A stretch of 64,000 bases of DNA from an uncultured Christensenella sp. (GTDB lineage Bacteria > Bacillota > Clostridia > Christensenellales > Borkfalkiaceae), in contig CAYNLN010000003.1 of NCBI GenBank assembly GCA_964398065.1, forward strand, positions 56,718 to 120,717. Reading direction: 5' to 3'. Both the position numbers and the translations under genes were made by a program. Below, in pieces: positions 2,735-38,381 of this stretch. Numbering within the stretch: position 1 is the first letter of the stretch; each line of letters starts with the position of its first letter. The notes under the pieces are model-generated. The model did not search any database. It saw only the letters and a program-made list of their open reading frames with translations, and was not told the origin of the DNA.

Positions 2735-3844
2735 ATGTACTTTAATTTACTTAGTACCGCAACCTGGTACTTATGGCGTTTCGATACGCCTTTGCTGTCT
2801 TTGCGAACGGTAGCCATTTGGCTTACTGCGGCGCTTGTTATAGCGTTTTTCGTTCTTTTTGCCGTTCTTGGCACGGAAAAACGAAAAAAACTTGTAAAAA
2901 GCAGTTTGACCTTTGCCGTTTGCTATGCGTGCACGCTAAGTTTGATTTTTATGGCACTTTCTTTTTCGGAAGACGCCAAAGACGGCGCACTGAACCTTTT
3001 ACTTTTGCTGCCGCTTTCGCTGCTTGTTTTATCGATTTTGGTAACGGCTGTTTTGCTTACCCGTTCAAAAAGCAAAAAAACAAAGCAACTGCTTTTTTTA
3101 ATCACGGGAATATTGTTTATCGTAACGCTTATTGCGATGGGTATTAGATTTTCGAGCGGCGACAGTGCCGAACTTAACGGACTAAACAAAGAAGACGTCA
3201 ATTCCTTGTGGCTGTATGTTGCGGCAATTACCGTGACCGTAATTATTGTTGCGGCGGGCTTTATTTTCGATAAAGGATATAAAGGTTTCGACACGCGCTC
3301 GATAACGTATGCGGGCGCACTTATCGCAATGAGTTACGCGCTTTCTTATTTAAAAATAGTAAGAATGCCCCAAGGCGGCTCGATAACGGTTGCTTCTCTT
3401 TTGCCCCTTATGTTGTATTCTTATATTTTCGGAACCAAAAAAGGCGTTTTCGTCGGGCTTATATACGGACTACTGCAAGCCTTGCAAGACCCGTATATCA
3501 TACACCCCGCTCAGTTCTTGCTCGATTACCCCTTAGCATTCGGCGCAGTCGGCTTAAGCGGAATATTCGCAAAAAACAAAAAACTCGAAAAAATGCCGCA
3601 ACTTAAATTTGCTTTCGGCGCCGTAATCGGCGGGCTTTCGAGATTTATAATGCACTTTTTAGCAGGCGCATTTGCTTTTGCCGCGTTTTCCGGGACGCAA
3701 AATCCGTTTATATACAGCTTTGTCTATCAAGCGGGATACGTGCTTCCCGATATGGCGGTAACTATTGTTGTCGGGATGATTTTGTTAAGTTCGAAATCTC
3801 TTGCTTCGTTTGTAGCCTCAAGGGGGCAAAAACAAACCGCTTAA
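2735..3844 (+). CDS. thiT: ThiT-family thiamine transporter S-component with a roughly 190-aa N-terminal multi-TM extension
   Basis: The C-terminal roughly 180 aa (ITYAGALIAMSYALSYLKIVRMPQGGSITVASLLPLMLYSYIFG...) look ThiT-like, and the gene sits directly behind a TPP riboswitch. I moved the start to the ATG at 2735 (in frame with the track ORF at 2672) because 2672-2734 is riboswitch/terminator. Confidence 0.7.
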   Translation: MYFNLLSTATWYLWRFDTPLLSLRTVAIWLTAALVIAFFVLFAVLGTEKRKKLVKSSLTFAVCYACTLSLIFMALSFSEDAKDGALNLLLLLPLSLLVLSILVTAVLLTRSKSKKTKQLLFLITGILFIVTLIAMGIRFSSGDSAELNGLNKEDVNSLWLYVAAITVTVIIVAAGFIFDKGYKGFDTRSITYAGALIAMSYALSYLKIVRMPQGGSITVASLLPLMLYSYIFGTKKGVFVGLIYGLLQALQDPYIIHPAQFLLDYPLAFGAVGLSGIFAKNKKLEKMPQLKFAFGAVIGGLSRFIMHFLAGAFAFAAFSGTQNPFIYSFVYQAGYVLPDMAVTIVVGMILLSSKSLASFVASRGQKQTA

Positions 3845-5436: not shown

Positions 5437-6749
5437 ACTACTTTAACATTATTTATATCGTAATAGGTAAAAGCCTCGACGGCTTCTTTTGTTATCACCT
5501 CGCCTACGCAAAGCACGGGCACCGCCGGCGGACACGATACCGAAAGTTCCGCCAAAACCCGTCCGCACGCCTCGGTTACGGGGATTTCTTCTTTTAGGGA
5601 AAATACCGCATCGCGAATACTTAAAGCCCTTTCGCCTACCACCCTACGCGGAGGGCTCGTTGTAATCCCGTCTTTTTTAGGCAGAGTCTTCAAAAGTGCG
5701 CACAGTTTATCGATTGACGATTTTTTGTTTAGCGGGGATATCATAAAGGTTACGTAGTCTTTATCGAAAAACTCGGCATAAACGCCGTGTTTTTCTAAAA
5801 ACTCGGCAACCTCCGTGCCTAAATAACCGTAATTTTTCGGCATTAAAGTAATTTTTAAAGGTTCGTCGCCGCAAAGATCGAATCCGACTTTTTTCAACGC
5901 TTCTTTAACTTCGGAAACGTAACAAACGGTTTTTTTTACTTTTTCGGCGTACTTTTCGGCTAAACCGTTAAATTTATCGAGGGATTCTATTAATAAATAC
6001 GACGGACTTGTCGAAGCAAACAATCTTAAAGCATCGTTTGCATTGTCTAAAAAATAGTCGGGACAATTTTTTCCGAAATGAAGATACGCCGTACCCGTAA
6101 GACAAGGCAAGGTCTTATGTGCGGACTCGATGCAAATATCCGCGCCCGCGTCGAGCGGATGACTTTTGTTATCTACGAATTTAAGATAAGCACCGTGTGC
6201 GTTATCGACGACCAAAAGCGTTCCGTATTTGTGGCAAATGTCTGAAATTTGCGAGATAACCGACCTATAGCCCAAGTAATCGGGTGAAGTAATATATAAC
6301 GCAAGCGGCTTTTCGGCTTTTAAAAAAGCGTCCAACGCAACCAAATTAAGATTTGTCGACATCATATTGTCTTCGTCGCCGTAAAGCCAAACGGGGTCAA
6401 CGCCCGAAAGCGCGCAAGCCGAAATAAAGGAGGAATGAACGTTGCGTGCCGCCGCGATTTTTACAGATTGCATGCCTATGCGACGTGTCGATAGCAAATA
6501 CACTACCGCCCTTATTAGAAGCGATGAACCTTCTACAGAGAAAAACGTCGCACTCGATTCGAATATTTTGCTTGCTATTTTTTCGCTTTGCAAAATAATA
6601 CCGCTCGGCGAATACAAAACATCGGCACCGACAATTTCGGTAATATCGTCTTTTTCGACTTTTCCCGCACCCTTGTGCCCGGGCATATGAAACCGCTTAG
6701 ATATTTTGCGGTATTTTTTTATAAAATCGCAAACAGGGGTTTTTGTCAT
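5427..6749 (-). CDS. Orn/Lys/Arg decarboxylase-family PLP-dependent enzyme
   Basis: 440 aa. The N-terminal FHMPGHKG motif and an internal SAHKTLP (PLP-lysine) motif are typical of this family. Confidence 0.75.
   Translation of the reverse strand: MTKTPVCDFIKKYRKISKRFHMPGHKGAGKVEKDDITEIVGADVLYSPSGIILQSEKIASKIFESSATFFSVEGSSLLIRAVVYLLSTRRIGMQSVKIAAARNVHSSFISACALSGVDPVWLYGDEDNMMSTNLNLVALDAFLKAEKPLALYITSPDYLGYRSVISQISDICHKYGTLLVVDNAHGAYLKFVDNKSHPLDAGADICIESAHKTLPCLTGTAYLHFGKNCPDYFLDNANDALRLFASTSPSYLLIESLDKFNGLAEKYAEKVKKTVCYVSEVKEALKKVGFDLCGDEPLKITLMPKNYGYLGTEVAEFLEKHGVYAEFFDKDYVTFMISPLNKKSSIDKLCALLKTLPKKDGITTSPPRRVVGERALSIRDAVFSLKEEIPVTEACGRVLAELSVSCPPAVPVLCVGEVITKEAVEAFTYYDINNVKVVKR
6255..6273 (+). 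repeat. dispersed motif copy (coding; encodes GYRSVI in the decarboxylase)
   Basis: gataaccgacctatagccc. Confidence 0.65.
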
Positions 6750-6794: not shown

Positions 6795-8174
6795 TTAAGA
6801 CTGTTCCTTCGAAACCTCTAACATAATTGCGCATTCGATACGCTTTTTAAAAAGGTCGCAGCCGCTTTTATATACGCCGTTGACAGACCCCGTGGCGTGG
6901 TAAGCGTTCGCCGCACAACCGCCGGCGCAGTATAATTTTGCCCAGCAATTTTCACATTCTTCCCTCGTATAAACGTTACAGTCGGCAAATTCCTTCTGCG
7001 TTTCCCTGCTAGTAACTCCGTCAAAGACGTTGCCCAATTTAAACTTTTCCTCGCCCACGAATTGATGGCAAGGATACAAATCGCCCCAAGGGGTCACCGC
7101 CATGTATTCCGTTCCGCTTCCGCAGCCCGAAACACGCTTGTAAATACAAGGTCCGCCCTTTAAATCTATCATATAGTGATAGAAAGTAAACGGCTTGCCT
7201 TGGCGCCTACGCTCGTCCATAAGCACGGCAAGTTCTTCGTATTGTTTTTTAACGACTTCCCTGTCCTCTTCGGTAAGGGCAGACGGATCGTCTTCTTTAC
7301 AAACGACGGGCTCCATACTGAGCTCTGTAAAGCCAAGATCCAACATCGCCTTAATATCGTTTAGAAAATCGGGATTATGATGGGTAAACGTGCCGCGCAT
7401 ATAATAATTTTTACCGCCGCGCGCCTTGACGAATTTTTGAAACAGCGGAACAATTCTGTCAAAACTACCGTTGCCGTCTTTATCGACCCTGAAACGGTCG
7501 TTAACTTCCTTTCTGCCGTCCAAAGAGAGCACGACGTTACTCATTTCCTTATTGGAAAACTCTATAACGTCATCGTCTATGAGCATACCGTTTGTCGTAA
7601 GCGTAAATCTGAAGTTTTTGTTTTTCTTTTTTTCGATGGAACGCGCGTACGCGACAAGCCTTTTTACGACATCGAAATTCATAAGCGGCTCTCCGCCGAA
7701 AAAATCGACTTCCAAATTGCGCCTCGTTCCCGAATTTTCCACGAGAAAATCGAGGGCGCATTTACCGACCTCGTAACTCATAACGGCGCGGTTGCCGTGA
7801 TATTTTCCTTGACTTGCGAAACAATACGAACAGTTTAAGTTGCAAGTATGGGCAACGTGCAAGCACAGTGCTTTTACGATACCGCTGCTTTTTTGTTTTA
7901 ACTTACCGGCAAGCGGCTTAAATTCATCCTTTGAAAACAACTTACCGTTTTCTTTCAGCGTAGAAATCTCGTCGTATAAAACCGCTAAATCTTCGGCGTT
8001 TTCGTTAGGATATTTTTCTAAAAGTAGGGCTATAAGCCCGTTTTTAGCGGTATTTTCATAACCCGCTATCATATCGTAAGCAATGTCGTCGACAACGTGC
8101 ACCGACCCCGATGAAGAGTCTAAAACTATATCGTATCCGTTTAATTTATATTGATGTACCATTTTTACACGCAA
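6795..8174 (-). CDS. scfB: Radical SAM/SPASM thioether-forming maturase for the SCIFF peptide
   Basis: CNLNCSYC radical-SAM cluster motif and a Cys-rich C-terminal SPASM region (CGSGTEY...CHQF...CENCWAKLYCAGGCAA). It lies immediately downstream of a SCIFF precursor gene. Confidence 0.85.
   Translation of the reverse strand: MRVKMVHQYKLNGYDIVLDSSSGSVHVVDDIAYDMIAGYENTAKNGLIALLLEKYPNENAEDLAVLYDEISTLKENGKLFSKDEFKPLAGKLKQKSSGIVKALCLHVAHTCNLNCSYCFASQGKYHGNRAVMSYEVGKCALDFLVENSGTRRNLEVDFFGGEPLMNFDVVKRLVAYARSIEKKKNKNFRFTLTTNGMLIDDDVIEFSNKEMSNVVLSLDGRKEVNDRFRVDKDGNGSFDRIVPLFQKFVKARGGKNYYMRGTFTHHNPDFLNDIKAMLDLGFTELSMEPVVCKEDDPSALTEEDREVVKKQYEELAVLMDERRRQGKPFTFYHYMIDLKGGPCIYKRVSGCGSGTEYMAVTPWGDLYPCHQFVGEEKFKLGNVFDGVTSRETQKEFADCNVYTREECENCWAKLYCAGGCAANAYHATGSVNGVYKSGCDLFKKRIECAIMLEVSKEQS
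8018..8045 (-). repeat. dispersed motif copy (coding; encodes KNGLIALLL in scfB)
   Basis: ctaaaagtagggctataagcccgttttt (+ strand as written). Confidence 0.75.
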
Positions 8175-8266: not shown

Positions 8267-8419
8267 TTATTTGCTTTCTTTGGAATTCTCGCACTTTTGG
8301 TTAGCAATGCCGCAGCTTGTCTTACAAGCGGATTGGCAAGAAGTTTGGCATTCGCCGCAACCGCCGTTTTTAGCGCTTTCGCAAAGGTTACGCGTTTCGA
8401 TAGTCTTAATGTGTTTCAT
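8267..8419 (-). CDS. scfA: SCIFF (six-cysteines-in-forty-five) ribosomal peptide precursor, 50 aa
   Basis: Hand translation of the minus strand gives MKHIKTIETRNLCESAKNGGCGECQTSCQSACKTSCGIANQKCENSKESK. AAGGAG lies upstream. The gene is not in the ORF track because it is under 60 aa. Confidence 0.9.
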   Translation of the reverse strand: MKHIKTIETRNLCESAKNGGCGECQTSCQSACKTSCGIANQKCENSKESK

Positions 8420-8451
8420 AACTACACTCCTTATATGCTGTTTATATACCG

Positions 8452-8480
8452 ATTATATCACACGACGGAATAAAAATCAA
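8452..8480 (-). promoter_or_regulatory. strong sigma-A type promoter for scfA-scfB
   Basis: Minus sense reads TTGATT (8475-8480), 17-nt spacer, TGA-TATAAT (extended -10, 8452-8460). Confidence 0.6.
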
Positions 8481-8716
8481 CAAAATACGCTTATTCTGCG
8501 CCATTATTAAAGATTTTTCTTTTATTTAACGCCCAAAACCTCGATTTATCGGTAATTTTTTACTTTTATAGCCGACTTTGACTTTTTATAGCGAAGCGTC
8601 GCACCTTTCAAACGTAGGGTTTATTTTGATTGCGAATAATCCCTTGTTTAAAAAACTCTTTAACGAAAGGCTAAGGTATGTAAAAACAAAACGACGACCT
8701 TGCTAACGAGGCAAAA

Positions 8717-11139: not shown

Positions 11140-14100
11140 TTACTTAATCCCTTTTTTTCGAAGAAAAAACATCAGCAAAGGCACAATCGCACCACACGAC
11201 AAGCCGAACAAAACTATCGACACAATCATCCAAGCGGTAACAGAGCTTAGTTTGTCGTTAAGCTCCTCGATATTCTCCGTCGCACCGCTCAAATCGCCGT
11301 TTAGCGAGTCAATCTTGCTTTGAGCATCGGCAACCTCGGTTTGGGTTTTGCCAAGTTCCGATTTTGTGTCGCTTAGTTCCGATTTTGTGTCATCCAGCTC
11401 GGTTTGGGTTTTGCCAAGTTCCGATTTTGTGTCGCTTAGTTCCGACTTTGTGTTATCAAGCTCGGCATTTGTTTCGTCCAGCTCGGTCTTAGTGTTATCA
11501 AGCTCGGTTTGCGTTTTATCCAGTTTGTCAGTCAAATCATCGGCAACCTCTGCCGTAACGTACCATTGAGCGCGCAACACCAAGTCCGCGACGACTTGCT
11601 TATCAAAGTCGTATGCAACGTCCCCGTTGAGCCAAACGTACATATAGCCGTCGTACGCCGGCAGCGAAACGGCTATTGCTTTTTGTCCACGCTCGACAAC
11701 AAGCTTTGTTACCGTTTGGTCGCCGTTTAGGTACGTTACGGTGAAAGAGTTTGAAGTATCCGCGCCCTCCACGTCGGAAAGATAAAATCCGCCCTTGATT
11801 GCAGAGTTATCGCAATAAACGTTTCGATTAAAAGTTGTAGAACTAACGCTTCCTTCCGGCATAACCACGGCGGATTCTTTCAAGTGCACGGTGCCGTCCA
11901 CGATTCCGCCCGATGCGTTAAGCGTGCTTTCCTTTAGATACAATGCGTCGGATTTGCCGTTGCTTTCCGTGCCGCTCGACGTGCAGTTTGTAATGCCGCC
12001 GTCCTTGATATCGATATCGCTTTCCGAATGGATACCGCCGCCTTCCGTTGCGTTGCAATTTTCAACGGAACCGCCTTCGAGCGATAGATACGACAGAGCC
12101 GATACATATATGCCGCCGCCGTACGTCGCGCGGCAATCATATACTGTGCCGCCGGCAAATATAAGCCCGCCTTTTTCTATCAAGACACCTCCGCCAAGGG
12201 AGCCGTCGTCTGCACTAAGCACACATCCCGTGCCGCCACTTATGAGCCCGCCGAGTGGCAAGTCGGTGTTCGAATGCACCGCGCCGGGATCGCTGTCGGT
12301 GATGGTAAGATATGCGTCATTGACGATTCTGATAACGCTACCCGAAGCTTCCGAATTTTGATAGCTTAAGATGTGACCGGCGAGATCCAAGGTGATATTA
12401 TTATTAACAATGACAGTTGCGCTCGGAGATATATCGTCAAGAAGCTTAAACTCTGTCATTCCGTTCCGCAGTGCATCCAGAAGCTCTTGCTCCGTCTTTA
12501 CATAACCGCTCCTCACGGTGAGCGTCACGGGCTCCGTAACAACGGACTCGAACACGTCCCCTATGGCGTTGGTGACCGTGCATCTGAACATTGCGCCGTT
12601 CATGCCGTGGGTCGTTGTATTGCACAGCAGGGAATAATCTGTTTCGCCCGCTTCGCACTGAATAGGAGCGACTGCGCTTTCCCAAGTCACGCCTCCGTCG
12701 TTGCTTATCTCCCAAAGCACCGTGTAGTTTGTTGTCGGATTATCTATCTGCAATATAAACTTAACGGCACTTCCGAGCCAGACGGTCTGGTCGACAGGTT
12801 CAGCCGTGATTATGGGCGCAAGCACCAATACCGGCGCAACCTCGTTTGTGTAAACAGTAACGCTAATATCGTCGTTCAACTTGTAGCCCACAAAGCATCT
12901 GTATTTTTCGTAGGAAGGCAGCGAAGCCCCGAACATATACATTGCTTGCTTATCCGTATCGAAATAGTTTTCGCTCGCAAGTTCCACCCAACCGAGAACG
13001 GAATCGTATCCCTGCCATTGATACGTCACGCTCACATTGCTTGAATACTCGTGCTTTGCGGACATGATAAACTTGCCCGTACTTGTCGCCGCCAAGCCTT
13101 GCGAATCGTCTATCGACAGATCGGAAATAACCCCCACGCTCACAACGTCCGAGTACGAGCACACGGTAAGGTCGTTTTTCGATATGCTAACCTTGCAGCG
13201 GTATAAGCCGCCGTCTGCCACGGTCAAGTTCTGCAAGTCAAAGGTGAACACCGTGTTTAAGTACGACTGCGTAAACACATCGCCCACGCTTTGCCAAGTA
13301 TCGCCGCCGTCCGTGCTTATTTCAAATTGATAGGTCTTGTAATAGTGGAAAAATACGCCGTTGTCGTCTACTTTCCAAGACGCGCCGTCGCCCTCGGTAT
13401 ATATGCCGTCCGCCATATTACTTATAACCACACCGCCGTCATCGAATGCGGGCGGAAACAAGATGTACACATAGGCGTAGTCGCTGTATCTTGTGTAATT
13501 CACGTTCTTGTACTTAAACTTGACCTGCAACCTGTATCTCGAAACAGAGCCGATCCCCGATACGTTTTCGTAATACAGCGTAGTCGCGGTGATTTTGTTT
13601 TCGGTATTGACTTTATCATAGTTGCCGTTCGACCAAGTTTCGTATATCCACTCATAGGTCACGTCGGATATGCCGTTGCCGTCCCCGTCCGTGTAATCCT
13701 CATCGAAAGCAGCCGTTAACGACAAGGAATCGGACGACGTTAAAGTGACGGTGCTCTCCGGTTGAACGATAAATCCCGCAAAATCGAGAACCGTAAACGT
13801 TGCCTCGTTCGAATATACCGTGTAGTCGCCGGATCGCATAACGCAACGTAGCTTCCAGCCGTTCATTTCTGTAGTAAAAGTAACTTCTACTCCCAAGCTG
13901 CCATACCAGCTATCCGTTACTTCGGAGTTTCCGTACGGGCTCAAATACTTAGTTGAAAAAATAATACTAAGCCCGGATTTAAAAGCCGGATTGTCCAAGG
14001 CGCGTTGCCAGGTCTCTCCGTCATCGGTGCTATATTCGTACCAGCAATCGACAACGCCCATATAACAGTTTTTTAAGTTGATTGAAAAATATTTGGTCAC

Positions 14101-26530: not shown

Positions 26531-28753
26531 ATGAAACACAATGTGCTTAAATTATTGTTTGTATTGATGTGTGCGCTATCTTTATGTCTTTTTGTATTTA
26601 CTTCTTGCAATAGCAAAGACGACGGGGTGTTATCGACGCCAAACAATTTAAATGTCTCCGACTACGTGCTTACTTGGGCTTCGGTTGACGGTGCCGAAAG
26701 TTACGTTGTCGATATTAACGGCTTGGAGTTTCAAACAACCGAAAACCGACTTGACATATTGATGCTTACTAAGGAATTAAAAAATCGCGCATTGCTAAAA
26801 GAAGAAAACGTAGCAAAAGTTATGGCACTCGGTGATTTGAAAATTTCTTTCGATTCCGAGTGGTCAAACGAAATAAAATACAATGCCGAAATCGTTTCCG
26901 GTGTCAACTACAGTTTTATAAACAACGATACGGAATGCGAAATCCTATCTGTCGATAAAGACGACTATCGCGGTGTAATGATTGTACCTGAAGAAATCAA
27001 AGGAAAAACCGTTACCAAGGTCGCTGAACACGGGTTTGACAATTGCAACTATTTAACCGACGTCGTTTTTTTAGGTGAAGACGTTCAACTCGGCCAAGGG
27101 GCGTTTCGAAAGTGCACCGGTCTCAAACGCATAATACTCCCCTCTCTTATTTCGACAATAACAGGTTCGGCATTTTACGGATGCACATCGTTAGTATCGA
27201 TCGACATTCCTGACTCGGTTACCCTAATCGGCCAAAATGCATTTAAAGATTGTATCGGATTAACAGAAATCGAGTTACCTGCAACTTTAAGCGACATAAA
27301 AAATACAGCTTTTTCGGGGTGTGGTAATTTAAAAACTATTACCGTTGACGCAAATAACCCCACGTTTAGAAGCGAGGGTAATTGCATAATACGTAAATCC
27401 GACAACTCACTTATTTTAGGCTGCTCCGGCAGCGTAATACCGAATGGCGTCGAATCTATCGCAAGTTACGCTTTTTACGGGTGCGACGAACTAACGAAAA
27501 TCGACATACCGGACGGGGTTACGTCAATTGAGAATTATGCTTTTTACAAATGCACAAATTTAAATGCTATTAATTATCCCTCGACGATTCAAGAGATTAC
27601 AGCCGAACAAATTAAGTATTCGCCACACGTCGAAACTATTACCGTTGACGCAAATAACCCCACGTTTAGAAGCGAGGGTAATTGCATAATACGTAAATCC
27701 GACAACTCACTTATTTTAGGCTGCTCCGGCAGCGTAATACCGAATGGCGTCGAATCTATCGCAAGTTACGCTTTTTACGGGTGCGACGAACTAACGAAAA
27801 TCGACATACCGGACGGGGTTACGTCAATTGAGAATTATGCTTTTTACAAATGCACAAATTTAAATGCTATTAATTATCCCTCGACGATTCAAGAGATTAC
27901 AGCCGAACAAATTAAGTATTCGCCACACGTCGAAACTATTACCGTTGACGCAAATAACCCCACGTTTAGAAGCGAGGGTAATTGCATAATACGTAAATCC
28001 GACAACTCACTTATTTTAGGCTGCTCCGGCAGCGTAATACCGAATGGCGTAAAAACAATAGGTAGTTGCGCCTTTGCTTATTCGAATATCGAAAAAGTAA
28101 ACATTCCATCTTCCGTAGAAGTTATTGAAAACAACGCATTCGAATCATGTCGTTATTTGTCCGACATCACAATACAAAACGGAGTACGGACAATAGACGA
28201 AAACGCCTTTTCGAAATGTATTAACCTTAAACATATTTGTATTCCCGAAAGCGTAACCGAAATCGGCGCGTCGGCTTTCTTCGATTGCCCTGTTTCGGCA
28301 ATTTTACTCGGAAACACCGTTGTAAGCGAAAACGCTTTCGGAGACTTCTCGTTTAACAATTCCGGCAGTCATACCGTATATGCAGCACACAACTATGACT
28401 CGAAGATGGTGTCTTCCCGCAATTTTGTTTGTTCGTGTGAATTTGCATATGACGAGGATATGCCTTACGTAAACTACTTTGTCTTAGTAAAATATAATCA
28501 GCAATCCGCCCAAAACAATACTGCTACGACAAGCGGCTATATCGTGCCGCCATATCGTCAAGGGTATGTCTTCGTCGGTTGGGCTTTAGACAAAGAGGCT
28601 ACTAATATGGTATCCGAAGTATATACCGAAGTGTATACCATAGAAAATGAAACTTATACATATACTTATACATGTACTTATACACTTACCCTCGCGGATA
28701 TCTTGCATATCGAAAACGGATCGCTTTTGTATGCTGTATGGGAAAAGGAATAA
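26531..28753 (+). CDS. BspA-type leucine-rich-repeat surface lipoprotein with a C-terminal Listeria-Bacteroides-type repeat
   Basis: Signal peptide plus lipobox (FTSC). Repeated units of the form IP..V..I...AF..C..L. C-terminal YRQGYVFVGWALDKEA motif. Confidence 0.75.
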   Translation: MKHNVLKLLFVLMCALSLCLFVFTSCNSKDDGVLSTPNNLNVSDYVLTWASVDGAESYVVDINGLEFQTTENRLDILMLTKELKNRALLKEENVAKVMALGDLKISFDSEWSNEIKYNAEIVSGVNYSFINNDTECEILSVDKDDYRGVMIVPEEIKGKTVTKVAEHGFDNCNYLTDVVFLGEDVQLGQGAFRKCTGLKRIILPSLISTITGSAFYGCTSLVSIDIPDSVTLIGQNAFKDCIGLTEIELPATLSDIKNTAFSGCGNLKTITVDANNPTFRSEGNCIIRKSDNSLILGCSGSVIPNGVESIASYAFYGCDELTKIDIPDGVTSIENYAFYKCTNLNAINYPSTIQEITAEQIKYSPHVETITVDANNPTFRSEGNCIIRKSDNSLILGCSGSVIPNGVESIASYAFYGCDELTKIDIPDGVTSIENYAFYKCTNLNAINYPSTIQEITAEQIKYSPHVETITVDANNPTFRSEGNCIIRKSDNSLILGCSGSVIPNGVKTIGSCAFAYSNIEKVNIPSSVEVIENNAFESCRYLSDITIQNGVRTIDENAFSKCINLKHICIPESVTEIGASAFFDCPVSAILLGNTVVSENAFGDFSFNNSGSHTVYAAHNYDSKMVSSRNFVCSCEFAYDEDMPYVNYFVLVKYNQQSAQNNTATTSGYIVPPYRQGYVFVGWALDKEATNMVSEVYTEVYTIENETYTYTYTCTYTLTLADILHIENGSLLYAVWEKE
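27334..28050 (+). repeat. 2.4 copies of a 300-bp tandem repeat, 100% identical
   Basis: 27334-27633 equals 27634-27933 exactly. A third partial copy runs to about 28050. The repeat is in frame (100 aa per unit). Confidence 0.95.
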
Positions 28754-30959: not shown

Positions 30960-31450
30960 TTTATTCCTAGTCATGTACCACTGGCCAAGTCGGTGGCTTG
31001 ATTTGGCACATCAAGCGCATGGTACCAGCGGCTCTACTCGCGCTTGAATTTGACTGACACTTGCACCGCTTTCCCATCTGCCACCTATTGTTGGCTTTTA
31101 TTTTGCTTTGCTTTACCGACTCACCCGTAAACAAGTCTATGTATTCGCTTATACTTATTTGATCGTCTATTTTGTCTTCCTCTATTTGGTTTTGTATGTA
31201 TTTTGCACTCGCAGTTTTATTTCTTCCTACTGTTGTAGCACATTTTTATGGACACTTTTTATGTGATACTTACAATTCCATTTTGTATGTGCTAAACTAT
31301 TTGTGGTGTTAGATACATCTTTCATTTTAATATCCTCCGATTGTGTATTTGTTTTTGACTGACAGGTCTTAATTTTATTGTACACAATCGGAGTTTTTAT
31401 TTCAAGACTCATCGGTAAACCTCTACTGAACCACGCGACTATCGCGTGAT
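30960..31450 (-). mobile_element. Decayed IS200-type element: tnpA (Y1 transposase) pseudogene with an internal deletion
   Basis: N-terminal fragment MKDVSNTTNSLAHTKWNCKYHI (ATG at 31325). A C-terminal fragment KYIQNQIEEDKIDDQISISEYIDLFTGESVK lies in another frame (about 31110-31205). The HUH/Tyr core is missing. A 13-bp stem CTCCGATTGTGTA/TACACAATCGGAG occludes the RBS, as in IS200. Confidence 0.7.
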
Positions 31451-31463
31451 TTTTCTTTATATC

Positions 31464-31498
31464 AAAAAAGCACGGACGAGAAATTACCGTTCGTGCTT
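31464..31498 (-). terminator. intrinsic terminator after the TIR-protein gene
   Basis: Minus sense reads AAGCACGAACGG-loop-CCGTCCGTGCTT followed by TTTTTT. Confidence 0.7.
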
Positions 31499-31522
31499 AT
31501 GAATTTTAAACTATTAGTATCT

Positions 31523-33724
31523 CTATTTCATATTCATCTCCCGCAATGCGATAAAAGGACAAACCGAAATTGTACAAGCTAAAACAAAAATGATTATAAA
31601 TCCAAAAACGCTACCTTCGCAATATGCAAAACATCCGTAAATTGTCTTTACAACGCCGTAAACACAACAGAAAATACACCATGCGTCACCATAACTTCCG
31701 CGAATGTTTTTCACACATATTTTGCCAAGCAATCCGTTAACAAGCGGCACTATACCCGTAGTCAGAAGAAACATAACAACATCTACGCCCACTTTATTCC
31801 ATTCAACGGATTTTATATACAAAGTAAGTATTGCATCGCCAACACAAACAAGCAGACCTATAATTGACAAAATAGTCTTAGCAGTAGACTTGCCTCGTTT
31901 TAACTTTTCTATTTTTACCAAAACTTGATTTTTTCTCTGATCTGCGTCCTTGTAGCCCGCTATACTCGAATACAATTCAACGGCTTTTTCATAATGTACT
32001 GTATCATAGTACCACTCACTGTCAGTCCGTCCGTTACTACAAACCCATTCTCGCCAAGTCGCCATATAATTTGCTTGTTTTAAAATTAAATCCTTACGCC
32101 TTTCGTCCGCATCCTTAAAACCTGATAATTGCGCATACAATTTAATCGCATCTAAACACTCTTTTGTATAAGTATGGTGATTTTCATCGAATGCCTTTAA
32201 CGCTAATTGGTTAGCGTCTTGAAGCAAACTTTCTTTGCGAATAAGATCTCCTCGTTTTACGCGCTCCTCGCATTCAAGTTGAGCTTGTCTTGCACGTTCA
32301 AGTTCGGCTTGTCTTTGTTTTTCACGTACAACAACAAGTTGTCTGTCGCATTCGGCGGCAAGTTCTTCCGAATCTTTATATGCGCTTATCGAATTAAACA
32401 ACTCAACGGCTTGTCTTAAGGCAGCTTCGCTTCCGTTATCTTTAAGCCCTTTAGCCGTACTGTATACACCGGACAAACGGATTTCTTCATTTCTTTGCTT
32501 TATATGATCGACATAACGCGACAACTCCGTTTTTAAATCTTCGCTACCGAAACGCATTATTTTTTTATAGTTGTTATTATCGTCGAAAGGTTTTTCGCAA
32601 TCACGAAATTCAAATTTGTTATGAATGCGGCAGTCGGCCATTAATTCTCCTAAATAGGCTAAAACGTTTTCGGGCTCGATATCGAGAACTTTTTCACAAT
32701 ATTCGTGTGCGCTTCTAAAATCACCGTCTTCTAAAAATAAACTTACCCTTTTTAAATAAGTATCCACGTTGCCGCCGACTTCGACTTTTGCAGCGCCTCC
32801 CTTTTGATTAGCGGAAGATTTTTTACTATCGCCGGCAATTTTTTTTATGCCGTGAATCAAATCCTGCATAAAGCCGAGTTTTGACATATCTTGGGCTTGA
32901 AGGTGAGAAAAAGCTTCGGGCAAATCGTAAGGGTCCATATCCTTATATGCGGGAATAAGAATTTTGTTTTCGCCGTTTTTAATAAGCGAAAGGAAACGAC
33001 TCCATTCGTTTTTAACCCAAACGGCATCGAAATATTCGCGCCTGGTGCCAATTACAACCATAACTTTAGCCGAATTTAACGCTGCGAATATGTAAGGTTC
33101 GTAAGCGGTGCCTAATTTGTCTTCAAGGGTAATGCGAGAAAAGAACACCTTAAAACCTTCTTGTGTTAATTGGTGATACAAGTCGTTTGCAAGTACGCTG
33201 TCTCGAGTACGTTCTTTAGTGTTGTCATCCGTTTCCTTATAGCAAATAAAAACATCGTAAGGGGGTTCCTTTTGGGAAATTGAAAGAAAACCTTTTTGAA
33301 TTTCGTTTATTATTTTCGCTTCGTTTTCAAAAACGCTTCTTTGCAAAGTATCGCAATAGTTTAACGCCTTTTTATAATTATCGTCATCGTAAACGGAAGT
33401 AAATTGAGCTCGATGTATGGTTGGTATGCGTTTACGGGTAACGGAATCGTCTACGTATTCGACGCCGTACTTACACAAAACAATCGACCAGTAAGCTTCG
33501 GCATCTGTCGCGTCCTCGTTTAAAATTTGTTCGTATATACCGATTGCCTTATCGAACTCGTTATTGCGCCGAAAATGGTTAGCCCTATCGTACATATTGA
33601 TTGTTCTGTCGTCGTCCAATTTAGGTAAAGTTTGCTTTACGTGACAATAATCGCATTCGATTACCGTAACGTCCGAGTCTATTTGTAGTGCCGCTCCGCA
33701 CATTTTGCAATGAAATGTCGCCAT
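31523..33724 (-). CDS. Zinc-ribbon / TPR / TIR-domain protein with helical repeats and a C-terminal 4-5 TM anchor
   Basis: N-terminus CKMCGA...CDYC. TIR-like core YDVFICYKETD...KVFFSRITLE...AVWVKNEWSRF. Three AxxLYxxIxGYKDADxR repeats. Hydrophobic C-terminus. Confidence 0.7.
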   Translation of the reverse strand: MATFHCKMCGAALQIDSDVTVIECDYCHVKQTLPKLDDDRTINMYDRANHFRRNNEFDKAIGIYEQILNEDATDAEAYWSIVLCKYGVEYVDDSVTRKRIPTIHRAQFTSVYDDDNYKKALNYCDTLQRSVFENEAKIINEIQKGFLSISQKEPPYDVFICYKETDDNTKERTRDSVLANDLYHQLTQEGFKVFFSRITLEDKLGTAYEPYIFAALNSAKVMVVIGTRREYFDAVWVKNEWSRFLSLIKNGENKILIPAYKDMDPYDLPEAFSHLQAQDMSKLGFMQDLIHGIKKIAGDSKKSSANQKGGAAKVEVGGNVDTYLKRVSLFLEDGDFRSAHEYCEKVLDIEPENVLAYLGELMADCRIHNKFEFRDCEKPFDDNNNYKKIMRFGSEDLKTELSRYVDHIKQRNEEIRLSGVYSTAKGLKDNGSEAALRQAVELFNSISAYKDSEELAAECDRQLVVVREKQRQAELERARQAQLECEERVKRGDLIRKESLLQDANQLALKAFDENHHTYTKECLDAIKLYAQLSGFKDADERRKDLILKQANYMATWREWVCSNGRTDSEWYYDTVHYEKAVELYSSIAGYKDADQRKNQVLVKIEKLKRGKSTAKTILSIIGLLVCVGDAILTLYIKSVEWNKVGVDVVMFLLTTGIVPLVNGLLGKICVKNIRGSYGDAWCIFCCVYGVVKTIYGCFAYCEGSVFGFIIIFVLACTISVCPFIALREMNMK

Positions 33725-33789
33725 AAATATCTCCTTAAATTAAAATTATCTCTTGTAAAATTATGTTTTTGATTTGGTTACGATGTTTT

Positions 33790-34494
33790 TTATTTTAAAA
33801 GTTTGCACTTAACGTTTCTTTCTTTTATCAACGCAAGTAAGTTTTCAGCCAAAGGCTTAACGCTCTCGATCTCGCCTTTCTTCACCGCATCCGAAAACAA
33901 TAAAAACTCGTTAGCAATCTTAGTGTCGATAACGTGAAGAGAAGCAACGCCCATCGGGTCGGAATACCTTATGGTTTCGTAAACTTTTATACATTCTTCC
34001 TTTACCTCGTCACCTTTGGCACACCCAAGGAGCGCTTCGGCGTTTGCCGAAAGTTCTTTAATGAAAAAAGTTTTCACTTTTACTTCTTGGTCGATTTCGT
34101 TAACGTAATTTACCGCTGCCGACGGCACCGCGCAAGCAATCACCGTAAGACCCGTGACCATCAAACACACCGACGCCCCTATCCATGTAGGAATAACAGG
34201 CAGTAACATAAATAGTAATCCTACTACAAGACAAATCGTAACCGACGTGCAAACTATCTTCATAAGTGGAATTCTTAAAAAAGTTTTCATATCGTTTTCT
34301 TCGTTTATAAATTTATAAGCGATTACAAGTTCTAATGCGAAAGAAAGTACGACTAATGAAAAAGCAATCCAAAATATCACTTTATCAAAACGGGTAATGC
34401 CAAAAATTTTGTTCGGTGCCAAAAAAGTTGCCCCGACAAACAAAATAAATTCGACTATCCAAATTATTATAAAATTTTTAAAGTTTTTAGCCAT
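33790..34494 (-). CDS. Hypothetical membrane protein (about 4 TM plus a roughly 100-aa helical C-terminal domain)
   Basis: 234-aa ORF packed tightly between the SPFH and TIR genes. I recognise no family. Confidence 0.6.
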   Translation of the reverse strand: MAKNFKNFIIIWIVEFILFVGATFLAPNKIFGITRFDKVIFWIAFSLVVLSFALELVIAYKFINEENDMKTFLRIPLMKIVCTSVTICLVVGLLFMLLPVIPTWIGASVCLMVTGLTVIACAVPSAAVNYVNEIDQEVKVKTFFIKELSANAEALLGCAKGDEVKEECIKVYETIRYSDPMGVASLHVIDTKIANEFLLFSDAVKKGEIESVKPLAENLLALIKERNVKCKLLK

Positions 34495-34507
34495 AAAAGC
34501 ATTCTCC

Positions 34508-35911
34508 TTATAATTTTTTCCCGCATTCTAAGCAGTATTTTGCGTTATTGGGGAGTTCCGCTCCACAATTTTCGCAAGTCGCTTTCAATAAAGCGCCGCA
34601 ATGAATGCAAAACTTGCCTTTTTTAGTTACTTGTTTGCATGCAGGACATTGGATTTCGTCATCGCTTAACAAGTCCATGCGGTTTCCGCAACTTAAACAG
34701 AATTTTGAATTTTCAGGGACATCTTCATGACAAACAGGACAACGTTTTGCCGTTTTAAAAGACATTTTTTGCTCAGCAGAATTATTTCCGTCTACATTAT
34801 TTAAAAAAGTATTGCCTTTTAAGGCGCTAACTACTTGGGCGCCTAACGTACCCGCTGCAGCCATTCCCACACCCAAGCCCAAAACGTCACCGCCGCCGCT
34901 CATATTGCCAAGCCCTTCGGCGTAGGCTTTTTGGACTTCTGCTTGAAGAATATCCTTTCCGTCGAAACCTTTTGCGTGCATGACTTCGGCTTCGACAAAG
35001 CCCGCCATTTTAGCTGCCTGTGCTTCGGCTTGGGCTTTGATTAAATTTCTTTCGGCTTCACGGCGGGCTATTTCCGTTGTGGTAGTTTCTTTTTCCAATA
35101 AATTTCTACGTTCGGCAACGGTCACTTGTGCGTCGCTATCGGCTATTGCGGTTCTAACCGCCATATCGGCTTCAACCATTTTCTTTTGCAAAGATATGGT
35201 TCTGAGTTCGCTCATACGCTTAAAGTTGCAATCATTTTCCGGCAACGCAACGTGGGTAACAAAGAAATTAGGAATGGTTAAGCCGTATTCTTCAAAACCC
35301 GTAACAAGACTTTTTCTTAATTCTTTAGATAACAGTTCTAAGTTTTCGTCAATATTGAAAATGTCAATGTTTTTTTCCCTAATACATTTTGCAAGATTTG
35401 CTTTTACCGCCGTCGAAATAAGGGGACGGAAAGACGATTCCAAAGATTTTGTAAAACCATCGCCGACGGCACCCCACGCAACGCCTTGCATCGTACCGAC
35501 GAGTTTTACAAGTAGTTTGCGTGAATCCGATACCATTAAATTCAATTCGCCGCATGCGCCTATCTCGATAGGAACGCCGTAAGTTGGCTCGGTAAACCGG
35601 ACTTTTGTGTCGGTTCCCCATTTAACACTCATTTGAACGGTCTTATTAATATAATAAACCTCGCAATGGAATGGCGTTTCGTCGGTAGCAAGTTTATTCA
35701 AAAGTTTACCTATCTGCGGAATATTTTGCGTTTTTAACGTATACCGCCCTGCGCCGAATAAATCAAGTGTTTGCCCATTCATCATAAAAATTGCTTCTTG
35801 CGATTCGTGCACGATAAGCTGGGTGTAACTGTTGAAATCTTCGCACGGGTGTTTCCATACAAATATGTCGTTGCTGCCTTCGTACTTAATAACGTTTGCC
35901 GCCACATTCAT
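34508..35911 (-). CDS. SPFH/Band-7-superfamily protein (YdjI / 'virion core protein'-like) with three C-terminal zinc ribbons
   Basis: N-terminus VIKYEGSNDIFVWKHP...LIVHESQEAIFMMNG. A central Ala/Glu-rich helix. C-terminus CPVC...CLSCG, CPAC...CIHCG and CENCG...CLECG. AGGAGG lies upstream. Confidence 0.7.
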   Translation of the reverse strand: MNVAANVIKYEGSNDIFVWKHPCEDFNSYTQLIVHESQEAIFMMNGQTLDLFGAGRYTLKTQNIPQIGKLLNKLATDETPFHCEVYYINKTVQMSVKWGTDTKVRFTEPTYGVPIEIGACGELNLMVSDSRKLLVKLVGTMQGVAWGAVGDGFTKSLESSFRPLISTAVKANLAKCIREKNIDIFNIDENLELLSKELRKSLVTGFEEYGLTIPNFFVTHVALPENDCNFKRMSELRTISLQKKMVEADMAVRTAIADSDAQVTVAERRNLLEKETTTTEIARREAERNLIKAQAEAQAAKMAGFVEAEVMHAKGFDGKDILQAEVQKAYAEGLGNMSGGGDVLGLGVGMAAAGTLGAQVVSALKGNTFLNNVDGNNSAEQKMSFKTAKRCPVCHEDVPENSKFCLSCGNRMDLLSDDEIQCPACKQVTKKGKFCIHCGALLKATCENCGAELPNNAKYCLECGKKL

Positions 35912-35935
35912 TTTCTCATCCTCCTATAATTTTAT

Positions 35936-35972
35936 AAATAAAAAAGTGCGACTTCGATAGAAGAACGCACTA
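35936..35972 (-). terminator. terminator-like hairpin about 25 nt upstream of the SPFH RBS (candidate attenuator)
   Basis: Minus sense reads AGTGCG-TT-CTTC-TATC-GAAG-T-CGCACT followed by TTTTTT. Confidence 0.5.
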
Positions 35973-36161
35973 AAAAACGCAAACTCCTATCGTTGCCACA
36001 CAATTCTCAACAAGACGGGTACTCTTCCGCAATCTCAAGCCGGAATTTGCATTTTTATCAAATTCATACTTGAAATTGCTAAAATAAAGTATAGTAACCC
36101 CTACACAAAAAATAAAGAGTACTCCCCTACGATCCTGTTGATTAAATTATGTGGCGATTTT

Positions 36162-36189
36162 ATTGTAACACATTTTTTATACCTTGCAA
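36162..36189 (-). promoter_or_regulatory. sigma-A type promoter heading a roughly 240-nt leader of the SPFH operon
   Basis: Minus sense reads TTGCAA (36184-36189), 16-nt spacer, TGT-TACAAT (extended -10; -10 hexamer at 36162-36167). Confidence 0.5.
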
Positions 36190-36344
36190 TAAATTTTAAG
36201 ATAAAAAACTGTTTTTCTCAAAAAACATAACCGTTTAAATACAGTTCACCTTCTCGCGATAACTTTTAATTCAACTTTCGCATAAGGGATTTTTAAACTC
36301 GAAAATAACAAAAATATTTTATCTTAATTTCCCAAAAACACGTC

Positions 36345-36370
36345 GAAAACCGACCTATAGGTCGGTTTTT
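36345..36370. repeat. dispersed motif copy, palindromic variant (intergenic)
   Basis: gaaaaccgacctataggtcggttttt. Confidence 0.75.
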
Positions 36371-36440: not shown

Positions 36441-37322
36441 TTAACTTTTCTTTTTAGTAATATTTTTAAACTTTTCCTCAATTTTTGTTTGGTATTTGCA
36501 ATAGAGCAGAAAAATCAAAACAAAAATTATGAAAATCCCTATCCACACGGGAATTCCCCACCCGCTGAAAGGTATTAATTCGCCCGTGCCGAAAAAGCAC
36601 ACCGCTGCAATGTATACGGGGCGAACAAAAAGCATAACGGCAAAAAAGAAAGTAAACTTCATCTTTGTAAGCCCCGCAACCATACACAATATATCGTCGG
36701 GAAAAAACGGAAGAAGTTGCATTAAAAAAAACAAAACGTTTCCTTTGTTTCCTAAAATATTGACGTACTTTTCGGTCGCTTCTTTGCCGACGCACCAATA
36801 CACCACGGGCTTCCCTGCGAGGCGCCCTATATAAAACGCTATTACCGAACCTAAAACGACGGATGCGTAAGAAATCCAAAAAGCCTGTACGGGTCCGTAT
36901 ATTGCGGTACCCGCAAGATAAAAGATAAACCCCGGAGCGGGCAAAATAATTACTTGAAACAGTTGAAGCAGAATATATATTACGTACCCGTAAGCACCCG
37001 CGTCCAAGATAAGTTGTTTTATTTTTACCAAGTCCTTAAGTCCGTCGAAAAGCCCTAATACGTTGAGAAGGAAAAACGTTCCTACGAAAATCGCCGTTAC
37101 GACGTTGCAAACAAAGGCGGTTTTGTAATAAGATTCCTTTTCAAGAACCGCAAAAACGGCGCACGATACCGTAAACGCCGTTATAAGCCCGTAGATAAGC
37201 ACTTTTAAGTACCATTCGACGGTACTTAAAAACGTTGCCATGATTATGGTCATCGATATGCCTAAAATTAAATTTATCACAAATATCGATACCGTTTGAA
37301 TTTTTTTATTTTTTGTTTTCAT
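36441..37322 (-). CDS. TVP38/TMEM64 (DedA-superfamily, VTT-domain) membrane protein
   Basis: LPAPGFIFYLAGTAIYGP...GSVIAFYIGR...FFPDDILCMVAG motifs. Confidence 0.75.
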   Translation of the reverse strand: MKTKNKKIQTVSIFVINLILGISMTIIMATFLSTVEWYLKVLIYGLITAFTVSCAVFAVLEKESYYKTAFVCNVVTAIFVGTFFLLNVLGLFDGLKDLVKIKQLILDAGAYGYVIYILLQLFQVIILPAPGFIFYLAGTAIYGPVQAFWISYASVVLGSVIAFYIGRLAGKPVVYWCVGKEATEKYVNILGNKGNVLFFLMQLLPFFPDDILCMVAGLTKMKFTFFFAVMLFVRPVYIAAVCFFGTGELIPFSGWGIPVWIGIFIIFVLIFLLYCKYQTKIEEKFKNITKKKS

Positions 37323-37917
37323 CTATACAGTCGTTACAAGATTTTATTCTACGCAAATTTTGCTTAGTATATACCAATAACGAGATACATACGAAAGAAA
37401 TACTTATTCCCATAACTATGCAAGACGTCCAATAAGGAATCTTTTTCCACACGATATGCAACAAAATATTAAAGTACAATACGACTGTGGTTGCCTTGCC
37501 TAAAACGTTTGCGCTGTAAGTCGTGCCCGTTTTGCGTATAACCATTATGCCTTCAATCCCCATTACCGTTTCCTTTAAGGCAAAAATAACCAAAAGCACA
37601 AAGATCGGAGGCGATTTTATGTAGTCGCACATAAGTACGAGCAGAGCAAGTAAAGTCAGCTTATCCGCAATCGGGTCGAGCGCTTTTCCGACCGCAGTTA
37701 TCATATTAAATTTGCGTGCGATTATTCCGTCCGCTATGTCCGACACCGCCGATAACACTATCAATACGACCATAAAAGTTTTGCGCCCTAAAAAATACGA
37801 CCATACTATAAACGGAATAAGCAGTATTCTAAATAGCGTTAAAATGTTAGGTATCGTAAAAAATTTTTCTTTCATTCGTCCACCGCTGTTTACATAATTT
37901 TTCCCAAGTATATACAA
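37306..37917 (-). CDS. CDP-alcohol phosphatidyltransferase-family protein (PgsA-like)
   Basis: IPNILTLFRILLIP and the DGxxAR...G..LDP.ADK motif (SDIADGIIARKFNMITAVGKALDPIADKL). The likely start is the internal MKEKFF. Confidence 0.8.
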   Translation of the reverse strand: MYILGKNYVNSGGRMKEKFFTIPNILTLFRILLIPFIVWSYFLGRKTFMVVLIVLSAVSDIADGIIARKFNMITAVGKALDPIADKLTLLALLVLMCDYIKSPPIFVLLVIFALKETVMGIEGIMVIRKTGTTYSANVLGKATTVVLYFNILLHIVWKKIPYWTSCIVMGISISFVCISLLVYTKQNLRRIKSCNDCIDENKK

Positions 37918-37976
37918 GTATACATTGGTAATTTTACATAAACGTTAAAAATAAGTGTATGTTTTGTTAAAAAACG

Positions 37977-38381
37977 TCAATTTATAGGGAAATACGGCGG
38001 ATTTATCGGTAAAATTACCGAAAATACGTTTGCCGAGCCCGTAAGCGTTATCACGGCGTTGCGCACGTAATGGTAAAGTTCACGCGTGGCTTGCGCTATA
38101 AAACTTTCGTAATCTTCCTTGTTTTGCAAATCGAAAACTTCGTAACACCCGACAAAGGAAACGTATAAATCGAAAATCTTCGGCGCCGTTTCGGTAGACT
38201 CTACCTTAGCGGTCAAAACTATCATCATTTCGTTTTCGCTTACCTTCGAGGTTTTTACCTGACGTTGAAACAATGGTTTTTCTTGCACGGTCTCCTGCGA
38301 GGGTTTTACGGGATTAAGTTTAAAACGGATTTCTTCTGCGTTAATACCTTTAGTTTTGTAATTCATATATATATCCACCAA
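37977..38381 (-). CDS. Hypothetical protein, possibly a SecB-like chaperone fold
   Basis: The pattern FDLYVSFVGCYEV...ATRELYHYVRNAVITLTG...VILPINPPYF resembles the SecB C-terminal region. Weak call. Confidence 0.35.
   Translation of the reverse strand: MVDIYMNYKTKGINAEEIRFKLNPVKPSQETVQEKPLFQRQVKTSKVSENEMMIVLTAKVESTETAPKIFDLYVSFVGCYEVFDLQNKEDYESFIAQATRELYHYVRNAVITLTGSANVFSVILPINPPYFPIN

Follow-up and report, generated by a model that had tools for sequence, protein, structure and literature searches.

A Clostridial operon joining an SPFH protein to a membrane-anchored TIR protein, a possible new kind of immune or envelope sensor

TIR domains play a central part in animal, plant and bacterial immunity. 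We asked what such a domain might do in a three-gene operon of an uncultured Christensenella sp., where it is encoded together with a protein of the SPFH type. The operon lies on the minus strand of a 64,000-nucleotide stretch of contig CAYNLN010000003.1 (assembly GCA_964398065.1, positions 56,718 to 120,717), here called the window; coordinates without a locus label are positions in it. Gene 1 (g1, 35911..34508) encodes a soluble SPFH protein of 467 aa (Band_7_1, YdjI-type) with three C-terminal zinc ribbons, and gene 2 (g2, 34494..33790) a protein of 234 aa with four transmembrane (TM) helices and a cytoplasmic three-helix bundle. Gene 3 (g3, 33724..31523) encodes 733 aa with a zinc ribbon, TPR-like helices, a TIR domain, a TPR/coiled-coil part with three GYKDA-type repeats and a C-terminal multi-TM anchor. 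All three open reading frames (ORFs) are intact, and their positions and the gaps of 13 and 65 nt between them are exactly those given in a first-pass annotation made from the letters alone. The operon brings together two kinds of system that are already known, TIR effector systems and YdjGHI-type SPFH modules, and it could represent a new type of immune or envelope sensor in bacteria.

The domain assignments of the first-pass annotation were all correct, as Pfam confirmed Band_7_1, the zinc ribbons, TIR_2 and TPR. In g1, Band_7_1 (PF13421) covers residues 28-226 (1.8e-34, 119.6 bits against a cutoff of 24), and Zn_Ribbon_1/DZR matches span the three CxxC...CxxC ribbons at residues 382-467. 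Hydropathy analysis detected no strong TM segment, the sole hydrophobic stretch being a weak Gly/Ala-rich segment at 343-361. With C-terminal zinc ribbons and no TM helix, g1 has both features of the cytosolic YdjI type. A sequence search of the PDB with g1 returned nothing related.

The TIR domain of g3 occupies residues 156-282 (32879..33259) and was recognised by TIR_2 over residues 158-282 (4.7e-12, 46.9 bits against a cutoff of 28); g3 also matches TPR_19/TPR_14. In a sequence search of PDB chains, the g3 stretch 'YFDAVWVKNEWSRF' aligned to 'YADSKWCLMELAEI' of flax L6/L7 and to 'FFSKQWPARELDGL' of Brucella TcpB. E240 (codon 33005-33007) aligns with the Glu of 'WCLMEL' in L6/L7 and of 'WPAREL' in TcpB, which we take to be the catalytic residue in L6 and TcpB. 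E240 is invariant in 30 homologues, as are W236, N239 and W241, and the WxxxE glutamate that had been read from the letters is indeed retained. Because the Glu at the catalytic position is kept, the g3 TIR is probably enzymatic and acts on NAD+, either cleaving it or making an NAD-derived signal. An AlphaFold2 (AF2) model of g3 had a mean pLDDT (predicted local distance difference test) of 70, with about 54-78 in the TIR part. Foldseek matched this model to the L6 and Roq1 TIRs at probability 1.0, with the model's TIR confidence being moderate. A profile search against the PDB returned mainly designed TPR proteins and one marginal TIR (TLR15/TLR2, E 0.035).

The N-terminal zinc ribbon of g3 (C6, C9, C24 and C27, CxxC-X14-CxxC; 33644..33709) has four cysteines that are invariant in 30 homologues. 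The three GYKDA-type repeats noted earlier were found at residues 448, 535 and 590 ([AG][YF]KD[AS]). The C-terminal membrane region (residues ~610-733, 31526..31897) contains 3-4 TM helices by hydropathy and AF2 helices. Hydropathy and Pfam revealed no outside domain and no DUF6273 in g3.

For g2, hydropathy indicated four TM helices followed by a helical cytoplasmic domain, and the AF2 model reached a pLDDT of 90. Searches in Pfam, NCBIfam, PADLOC and PHROG gave no match, and Foldseek found no PDB fold with E below 0.3. Neither g2 nor any of 102 homologues carries a Pfam domain, and thus none has a TPM domain. The g2 family comprises 2597 clusters at 50% identity (E <= 1e-10) and shares an invariant E..RYSDP motif and a C-terminal RNxKCKLLK. 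Some members are fusions: P0275 and P0331 join an N-terminal Pkinase domain (Ser/Thr kinase) to the g2 domain, and g2 is joined to a trypsin-like peptidase (Trypsin_2) in P0307 and to repeats of a surface type in P0233 (RCC1_2) and P0332 (Flg_new). This suggests that g2 is a general membrane signalling or effector-coupling module.

The triad is conserved in synteny across Clostridia. In 55 of 79 related loci, the TIR gene has a g1 homologue in the same orientation no more than 10 kb away (49 upstream, 6 downstream). Among the 68 informative loci, this leaves 13 with enough flank and no SPFH gene. The g1 homologues adjoining a TIR gene are 44-70% identical to g1. The 4-TM gene is also present in 52 of the 55 SPFH-linked loci, almost always between the SPFH and TIR genes, and the distance from g1 start to g3 start has a median of 2161 nt in the family compared with 2187 nt in the window. 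An additional, fourth gene stands between g2 and the TIR gene in many relatives and encodes a soluble protein of 140-296 aa (for example L001:9308-9997, L006:8418-9086 and L008:9114-10004, where an L number names a related locus and is followed by positions in it); the L001 copy has no Pfam match, and the window lacks the gene. TIR-receptor genes are duplicated in tandem within a single operon at L010:7026-12129, L027:5570-11021 and L068:6046-12307, and genome CANQGK01 contains two separate loci, L019 and L026.

The g3 homology search returned at least 8000 relatives, 49-69% identical over the N-terminal ~545 residues. The best 120, on which domains and identities were surveyed, show 52-66% identity across the first ~64-84% of the protein. 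When one genome per species was scanned, at least 572 matches were confirmed. Nearly all of the best 80 of these, for which taxonomy was read, are labelled as gut or rumen Clostridia. The taxa among the matches listed include Oscillospiraceae, Lachnospiraceae, Acutalibacteraceae, Ruminococcus, Anaerovoracaceae, Catabacter and Anaerotignum, together with two metagenome-assembled genome bins labelled Sphaerochaetaceae and planctomycete. Cultured carriers include Anaerotignum sp. MSJ-24 (L060) and Ruminococcus sp. YRD2003 (L055).

One related operon has no TIR domain. L088:4826-8389 encodes an SPFH protein with zinc ribbon, a g2-like protein (a distant homologue, 30% identity), a 30-aa ORF, a 364-aa zinc-ribbon/helical/TM protein and a 143-aa protein, and a resolvase fragment lies upstream. 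Over its first ~150 residues, the 364-aa third protein shares homology with the N-terminus of g3 (hhalign probability 84%, E 8e-6). Another locus combines an SPFH-SHOCT protein with g2 and TIR. The conserved core, judged from these sequences, is the SPFH gene, the 4-TM gene and the zinc-ribbon membrane protein, and the TIR appears to be a swappable output because an operon with SPFH-zinc ribbon and g2 has a homologous third protein without it. The idea that g2 is a dedicated receptor for a TIR-made signal is weakened, as g2 homologues also pair with the TIR-less third protein.

The window copy departs from the typical form of its huge family, which is a single-pass TIR receptor, a point that the first-pass annotation had missed. 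In most g3 homologues, a Lys/Arg-rich stretch leads into one TM helix near residue 550. The C-terminal domain that follows is DUF6273 in roughly 100 of the best 120, and LRR_5/LRR_8 or RCC1_2 in others. Hydropathy and flanking charges, on which the topology is based, predict a receptor-like protein with N terminus in and C terminus out, because the N-terminal zinc ribbon is cytoplasmic. DUF6273 has been described as a C-type-lectin-fold domain and a recurrent target of diversity-generating retroelements (DGRs) in phage receptor-binding proteins (PMC10743442, PMC11792537). In the window, the C-terminal membrane region of g3 replaces the single TM helix and outside domain of most relatives; g3 and its 80% relative are the only members with a multi-TM anchor and without an outside domain.

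Relatives also carry what looks like an invertible on/off switch of the operon. Fourteen of the 129 ORFs just upstream of the module encode tyrosine recombinases; at 8 loci that were inspected, they are about 280 aa long and immediately precede the SPFH gene in the same orientation. In 15 loci, a stretch of 130-274 nt just ahead of the SPFH gene is flanked by two inverted copies of ACATAAT-N4-ATTATGT (L006:6154-6422, L009:4057-4325, L011:7112-7359, L017:7266-7534, L038:7797-8076, L043:7356-7665, L068:4588-4866 and L078:6899-7178, and further L001-L004, L008, L015 and L032). Compared with its homologues in L006 and L009, the inner segment of L017 runs the opposite way round, and the extended -10 promoter-like site faces the operon in L017 but faces away from it in L006. 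The window operon has neither an ACATAAT-N4-ATTATGT site nearby nor a recombinase upstream.

In five related loci, a self-blastn filter detected pairs of DGR template repeat (TR) and variable repeat (VR) in which 81-100% of the mismatches fall at template adenines. The VR lies at the 3' end of the TIR-TM-DUF6273 gene in all five: L008 (TR 13117-13243, VR 12424-12550), L018 (TR 3383-3508, VR 2676-2801), L030 (TR 13129-13250, VR 12422-12543), L058 (TR 7213-7339, VR 6520-6646) and L068 (TR 12853-13012, VRs 8376-8535 and 12161-12316 in two tandem receptor genes). Because of these pairs with adenine-specific mismatches, the outside domain appears to be hypermutated in some members. Avd-like genes lie 3' of the TIR gene in a few related loci, a count made separately from the five TR/VR loci. 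The window g3 lacks DUF6273 by Pfam, and the window itself was not put through the self-blastn filter. The window copy is a stripped-down member without outside domain, switch or DGR.

The three genes are under purifying selection and belong to a mobile, cassette-like unit. We compared the window with its nearest relative, L084, which is found on many metagenome contigs. Amino-acid identity is 94% for g1, 91% for g2 and 78% for g3, and the ratio of non-synonymous to synonymous substitution rates (dN/dS) is 0.105 for g1, 0.132 for g2 and 0.126 for residues 1-600 of g3. Thus g1, g2 and the cytoplasmic part of g3 are under purifying selection. The membrane C-terminus of g3 diverges fast (dN 0.69 compared with 0.05 for residues 1-600), and blastn similarity of g3 to L084 disappears between 31896 and 31522. 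The cassette common to the two loci is 31466..36360 (86-91% blastn identity), with nothing shared beyond it: GH43 lies downstream in L084, an IS200 remnant lies downstream in the window, and the upstream flanks also differ. The proposal that this is an accessory locus stands, since a ~90% identical copy sits between unrelated flanks. L001 has a context like that of an integrative and conjugative element, with ParA/ParB, TnpV and a DUF4368 recombinase, a setting that the window operon does not share. We do not regard g3 as a phage or plasmid gene, because only 1 of 2.9 million viral contigs had a relative and a tblastn search with g3 found nothing in plasmids or phages. The same search with g1 gave one weak match, to an unannotated phage contig.

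We compared the operon with known systems. In Bacillus subtilis, YdjG (zinc ribbons and TM) and YdjH (TM) recruit cytosolic YdjI (Band-7 and zinc ribbon) (PMC11237479, PMC9239133, bioRxiv 10.64898/2026.02.06.704340). As in PspA-YdjGHI (SamGHI), a cytosolic Band_7_1 protein with a C-terminal zinc ribbon is encoded here with two membrane proteins, and g3 resembles YdjG in having an N-terminal zinc ribbon and a C-terminal TM anchor. This likeness is one of architecture, taken from published descriptions of YdjG, YdjH and YdjI. However, g3 carries TPR and TIR in place of the NTF2-like domain of YdjG, g2 lacks the TPM domain of YdjH, pspA is missing, the SPFH gene comes first in a reversed order, and the module is an accessory cassette that is phase-variable or DGR-linked in relatives. 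PspA_IM30 was found neither in the window flanks nor among the 25 most frequent families on either flank of about 50 related loci, in lists that extend to families with one or two members, and the operon is therefore not tied to psp genes, an association that the first-pass annotation had thought would indicate a housekeeping envelope-stress role.

The operon shares with Thoeris and other TIR systems (ThsB, TIR-STING, SPARTA, TIR-NLR) a TIR_2 domain with the catalytic Glu position, which makes an NAD+-directed output plausible. Unlike these anti-phage systems, it contains no ThsA-type effector, cyclase, Argonaute or STAND NTPase, and its TIR belongs to a protein that is anchored in the membrane and linked to an SPFH scaffold. 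In architecture only, most relatives resemble animal Toll-like receptors, as single-pass proteins with a cytoplasmic TIR and an outside domain that is an LRR in some (for example P0007). They differ in that the order is inverted, with the N-terminal TIR inside and the C-terminal domain outside, and in that the bacterial TIR is probably enzymatic; the window g3 ends in 3-4 TM helices and has no outside domain. The resemblance is probably convergent and not whole-protein homology. For the switch, the nearest comparison is with the RecV-type invertible switches of C. difficile, such as that of cwpV: a small tyrosine recombinase, likened by description, and an inverted-repeat segment precede an envelope-related operon in the relatives, whereas the window has neither the recombinase nor the repeat pair.

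The DGR-bearing relatives recall the DGR conflict systems of multicellular bacteria, in which a C-type-lectin-fold variable domain, hypermutated by the DGR, is coupled to effectors such as TIR (Kaur et al. 2020, PMC7159879; Dore et al. 2024, PMC10907252). Those systems are built on STAND or MoxR-vWA NTPases (PMC7159879, PMC10907252), and most of their targets with a predicted localisation are cytoplasmic (PMC10907252). Five of our loci have TR/VR pairs in the DUF6273 domain of the TIR protein; unlike the known systems, this TIR family has no NTPase, spans the membrane, is linked to SPFH and occurs in gut and rumen Clostridia, and the window copy has no DGR. We found no published description of SPFH with TIR, of DGR with TIR in Clostridia or of a transmembrane bacterial TIR in a literature search that left subscription journals mostly uncovered, in keeping with the earlier remark that no described defence system was known to combine SPFH and TIR.

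We interpret the operon tentatively, with belief and doubt close to balance, as encoding a three-part membrane SPFH complex, similar to YdjGHI, by which a TIR NADase effector is kept under control; its probable setting is conflict with phages or other invaders. In this model, g1 would oligomerise beneath the membrane, where g2, with its four TM helices and cytoplasmic helical bundle, and g3 would anchor it. g3 would dock through its N-terminal zinc-ribbon/helical module, and its TIR would be the output domain, tethered by the fast-evolving C-terminal membrane region. At rest, the assembly of SPFH and g2 would hold the TIR protomers apart or inactive. An envelope disturbance would let them cluster and fire, leading to growth arrest or death of the infected cell, or to a stress signal. 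The trigger in most relatives would be a ligand on the outside domain; in the window copy it would probably be membrane perturbation itself. A role in conflict or abortive infection is favoured because the receptors are variable, phase-switched and DGR-diversified, the cassette is mobile and the g3 C-terminus evolves fast.

Putative signals for expression are in place. A promoter-like site of the sigma-70 type, TTGCAA-16 nt-(TG)TACAAT (36189..36162, minus strand; consensus scan and sequence), lies upstream of g1, just 3' of the terminator hairpins of the preceding VTT/DedA gene. A terminator-like hairpin (AGCACGAACGG...CGUCCGUGCU) followed by UUUUUU (~31498..31462; fold -13.5 kcal/mol, z = -2.4) lies 3' of g3, where blastn similarity to the L084 copy ends. 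A scan of the operon strand revealed no terminator-like site inside the operon. The proposed single promoter and single terminator agree with what we found, and a ribosome-binding site (RBS) is present as well.

Between the promoter-like site and g1 lies a 5' leader of 249 nt (35912..36160, minus strand), in which a long imperfect hairpin is followed by another hairpin and then, ahead of the RBS, by a U-rich stretch. The long hairpin is ~160 nt, with outer arms at 36155-36145 and 36005-35995. The minimum free energy of the leader RNA is -85.7 kcal/mol compared with -52.0 +/- 4.7 in shuffles (z = -7.2), and its richness in G-U pairs makes the pairing strand-specific. The leader is kept in L084-L087, where changes are one-sided and pair-compatible. 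Rfam gave no match, and a known riboswitch was rejected on this basis; a family-wide element was also rejected, as the leader was found only in these nearest relatives and not in other loci. The second hairpin overlaps a small hairpin and U-run just before the RBS and could be an attenuator. The outer arms of the long hairpin, GCCACATAATT and AATTGTGTGGC, resemble half of the inverton repeat core of the relatives.

The genes flanking the operon in the window encode VTT/DedA, CDP-OH-P transferase, SecB-like, phosphodiesterase and phosphoribosyltransferase (PRTase) proteins by Pfam. Directly upstream, 36441-38381 (minus strand) carries the VTT/DedA, CDP-alcohol phosphatidyltransferase and SecB-like genes, that is, membrane-lipid or export genes; this neighbourhood is not common to L084. 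Downstream is an internally deleted IS200-like remnant (~31130-31451, minus strand). A decayed IS200 element had been proposed here, and a 61-aa ORF whose start resembles a TnpA but which is then cut short, together with a sub-threshold Rfam match to the IS200 5'UTR STnc490 (31335-31451, E 7.7e-6), speaks for it, while Pfam lends no support. About 3 kb from the operon, 26531-28753 (plus strand) encodes a 740-aa BspA-type LRR_5 surface protein; LRR_5 is the repeat type of some TIR-receptor outside domains, and the protein has no sequence similarity to g3.

Two arguments for a foreign origin did not survive. The operon had been described as AT-rich and CpG-poor by eye, but its GC content of 0.390 compares with 0.416 +/- 0.027 for the window (15th percentile), and both GC and CpG are within 1 standard deviation. 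It is not a compositional outlier, and we rejected a foreign composition. Over the whole 64 kb, CpG observed/expected is about 1.8, unusually high at roughly 42% GC. The second argument was the absence from the operon of a dispersed host motif, which is probably the ~15-nt ATAACGGGCTTATAG. About 14 copies occur in the 64 kb (3863, 5413, 8031, 12160, 18985, 20935, 21627, 24962, 28968, 30931, 37182, 38399, 41512 and 51608), with none between 30931 and 37182, and a gap of such size is not significant. Copy 30931 and a related form, CGACCTATAGGTCG, at 36345-36370 lie in intergenic terminator-like hairpins; from these two copies, ATAACGGGCTTATAG looks like an intergenic terminator-type element. For an operon that is gap-free, its absence is uninformative.

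Several observations weigh against our reading of the operon as a TIR-controlling complex with a role in conflict. PADLOC, which matched none of g1, g2 and g3, does not support the defence function suggested by the first-pass annotation, and the NCBIfam Thoeris III model ThcB4 scored far below threshold on g3 (22.5 bits against a cutoff of 220); the PADLOC, NCBIfam and PHROG scans yielded no usable defence or phage-family assignment for the three proteins. There is no ThsA-like protein (SIR2/SLOG, Macro/TM) or other known receptor of a TIR signal in the operon and no ThsA-type effector in the flanks. Defence neighbours are only occasional: a census of about 240 flanking ORFs of related loci revealed scattered defence models and no clear defence-island signal, and we do not claim enrichment because there is no background rate. 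The genes are essentially absent from phages and plasmids, and the cytoplasmic part of g3 is 61-69% identical across Clostridial families, which appears unusually conserved for a defence gene. Confidence in the modelled TIR region is only moderate. The conflict-type features of the family (outside domain, switch, DGR) are not in the window copy, whose flanks are housekeeping membrane-lipid genes, VTT/DedA and CDP-alcohol phosphatidyltransferase.

Several of these points would suit an envelope-stress or membrane-homeostasis module, a YdjGHI/SamGHI-like sensor whose TIR makes an NAD-derived signal or adjusts NAD levels. The match to the YdjG, YdjH and YdjI architecture, the adjoining lipid genes, the strong cytoplasmic conservation of g3 and the lack of a PADLOC match are all consistent with it, as is the occurrence of the SPFH and g2 core with a TIR-less third protein and in kinase fusions, which points to generic signalling. 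We regard it as the main rival and a serious one, though somewhat unlikely. No pspA was seen in the window flanks or the flank censuses, g2 has no TPM domain and the lipid-gene neighbours are not kept in L084, which has a different upstream flank; moreover, the distribution is patchy and cassette-like, and the phase variation, DGR hypermutation and outside-domain swapping of relatives are unusual for a housekeeping stress sensor. The variable outside domain could instead make the family phase-variable surface receptors or adhesins that bind host, dietary or bacterial ligands, with the TIR serving in oligomerisation or anchoring and not as an enzyme, and the window copy being a derivative without the binding part. 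DUF6273 (C-type-lectin fold; PMC10743442), LRR_5 and RCC1_2 are types found on Firmicute surface proteins and phage receptor-binding proteins, and invertons and DGRs classically act on surface proteins. However, the catalytic-position Glu and its surrounding motif are invariant, such a role would leave the tight link to SPFH and the 4-TM protein unexplained, and both the window copy and its 80% relative remain under purifying selection without an outside domain, so that we find this quite unlikely. Highly improbable, finally, is that the window copy is the decaying, non-functional leftover of a complete switchable receptor operon beside an IS200 fragment. It lacks the recombinase, inverted repeats, outside domain and DGR, adjoins the degraded IS200 and has leader arms reminiscent of half of the inverton repeat core, but its ORFs are intact, dN/dS is 0.10-0.13 against a relative on many metagenome contigs, and it retains a promoter, RBS and terminator.

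The locus matters mainly because it exposes the family. To our knowledge, every bacterial TIR system characterised so far detects infection from within the cell. If our preferred reading of a TIR effector controlled by an SPFH complex is true, a TIR enzyme would act at the membrane under an SPFH scaffold. In most members it would be coupled to an outside domain that is variable and switchable, which would give a first indication that bacterial TIR signalling can run from the outside in. More speculatively, and unlikely as it is on present evidence, the family could be the bacterial counterpart of Toll-like receptors: an outside domain, swapped between members and in subsets hypermutated by a DGR, would sense threats such as an adsorbing phage and signal to a TIR NADase assembled and gated on the SPFH scaffold, an invertible segment would turn the operon on and off in subsets, and the window variant, without an outside domain, would sense membrane damage. 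SPFH proteins would also gain a concrete client, and the operon would offer a tractable test of SPFH assemblies regulating enzymes. Explaining the family would annotate a large block of microbiome 'dark matter', with at least 572 species-representative matches and thousands of 4-TM clusters.

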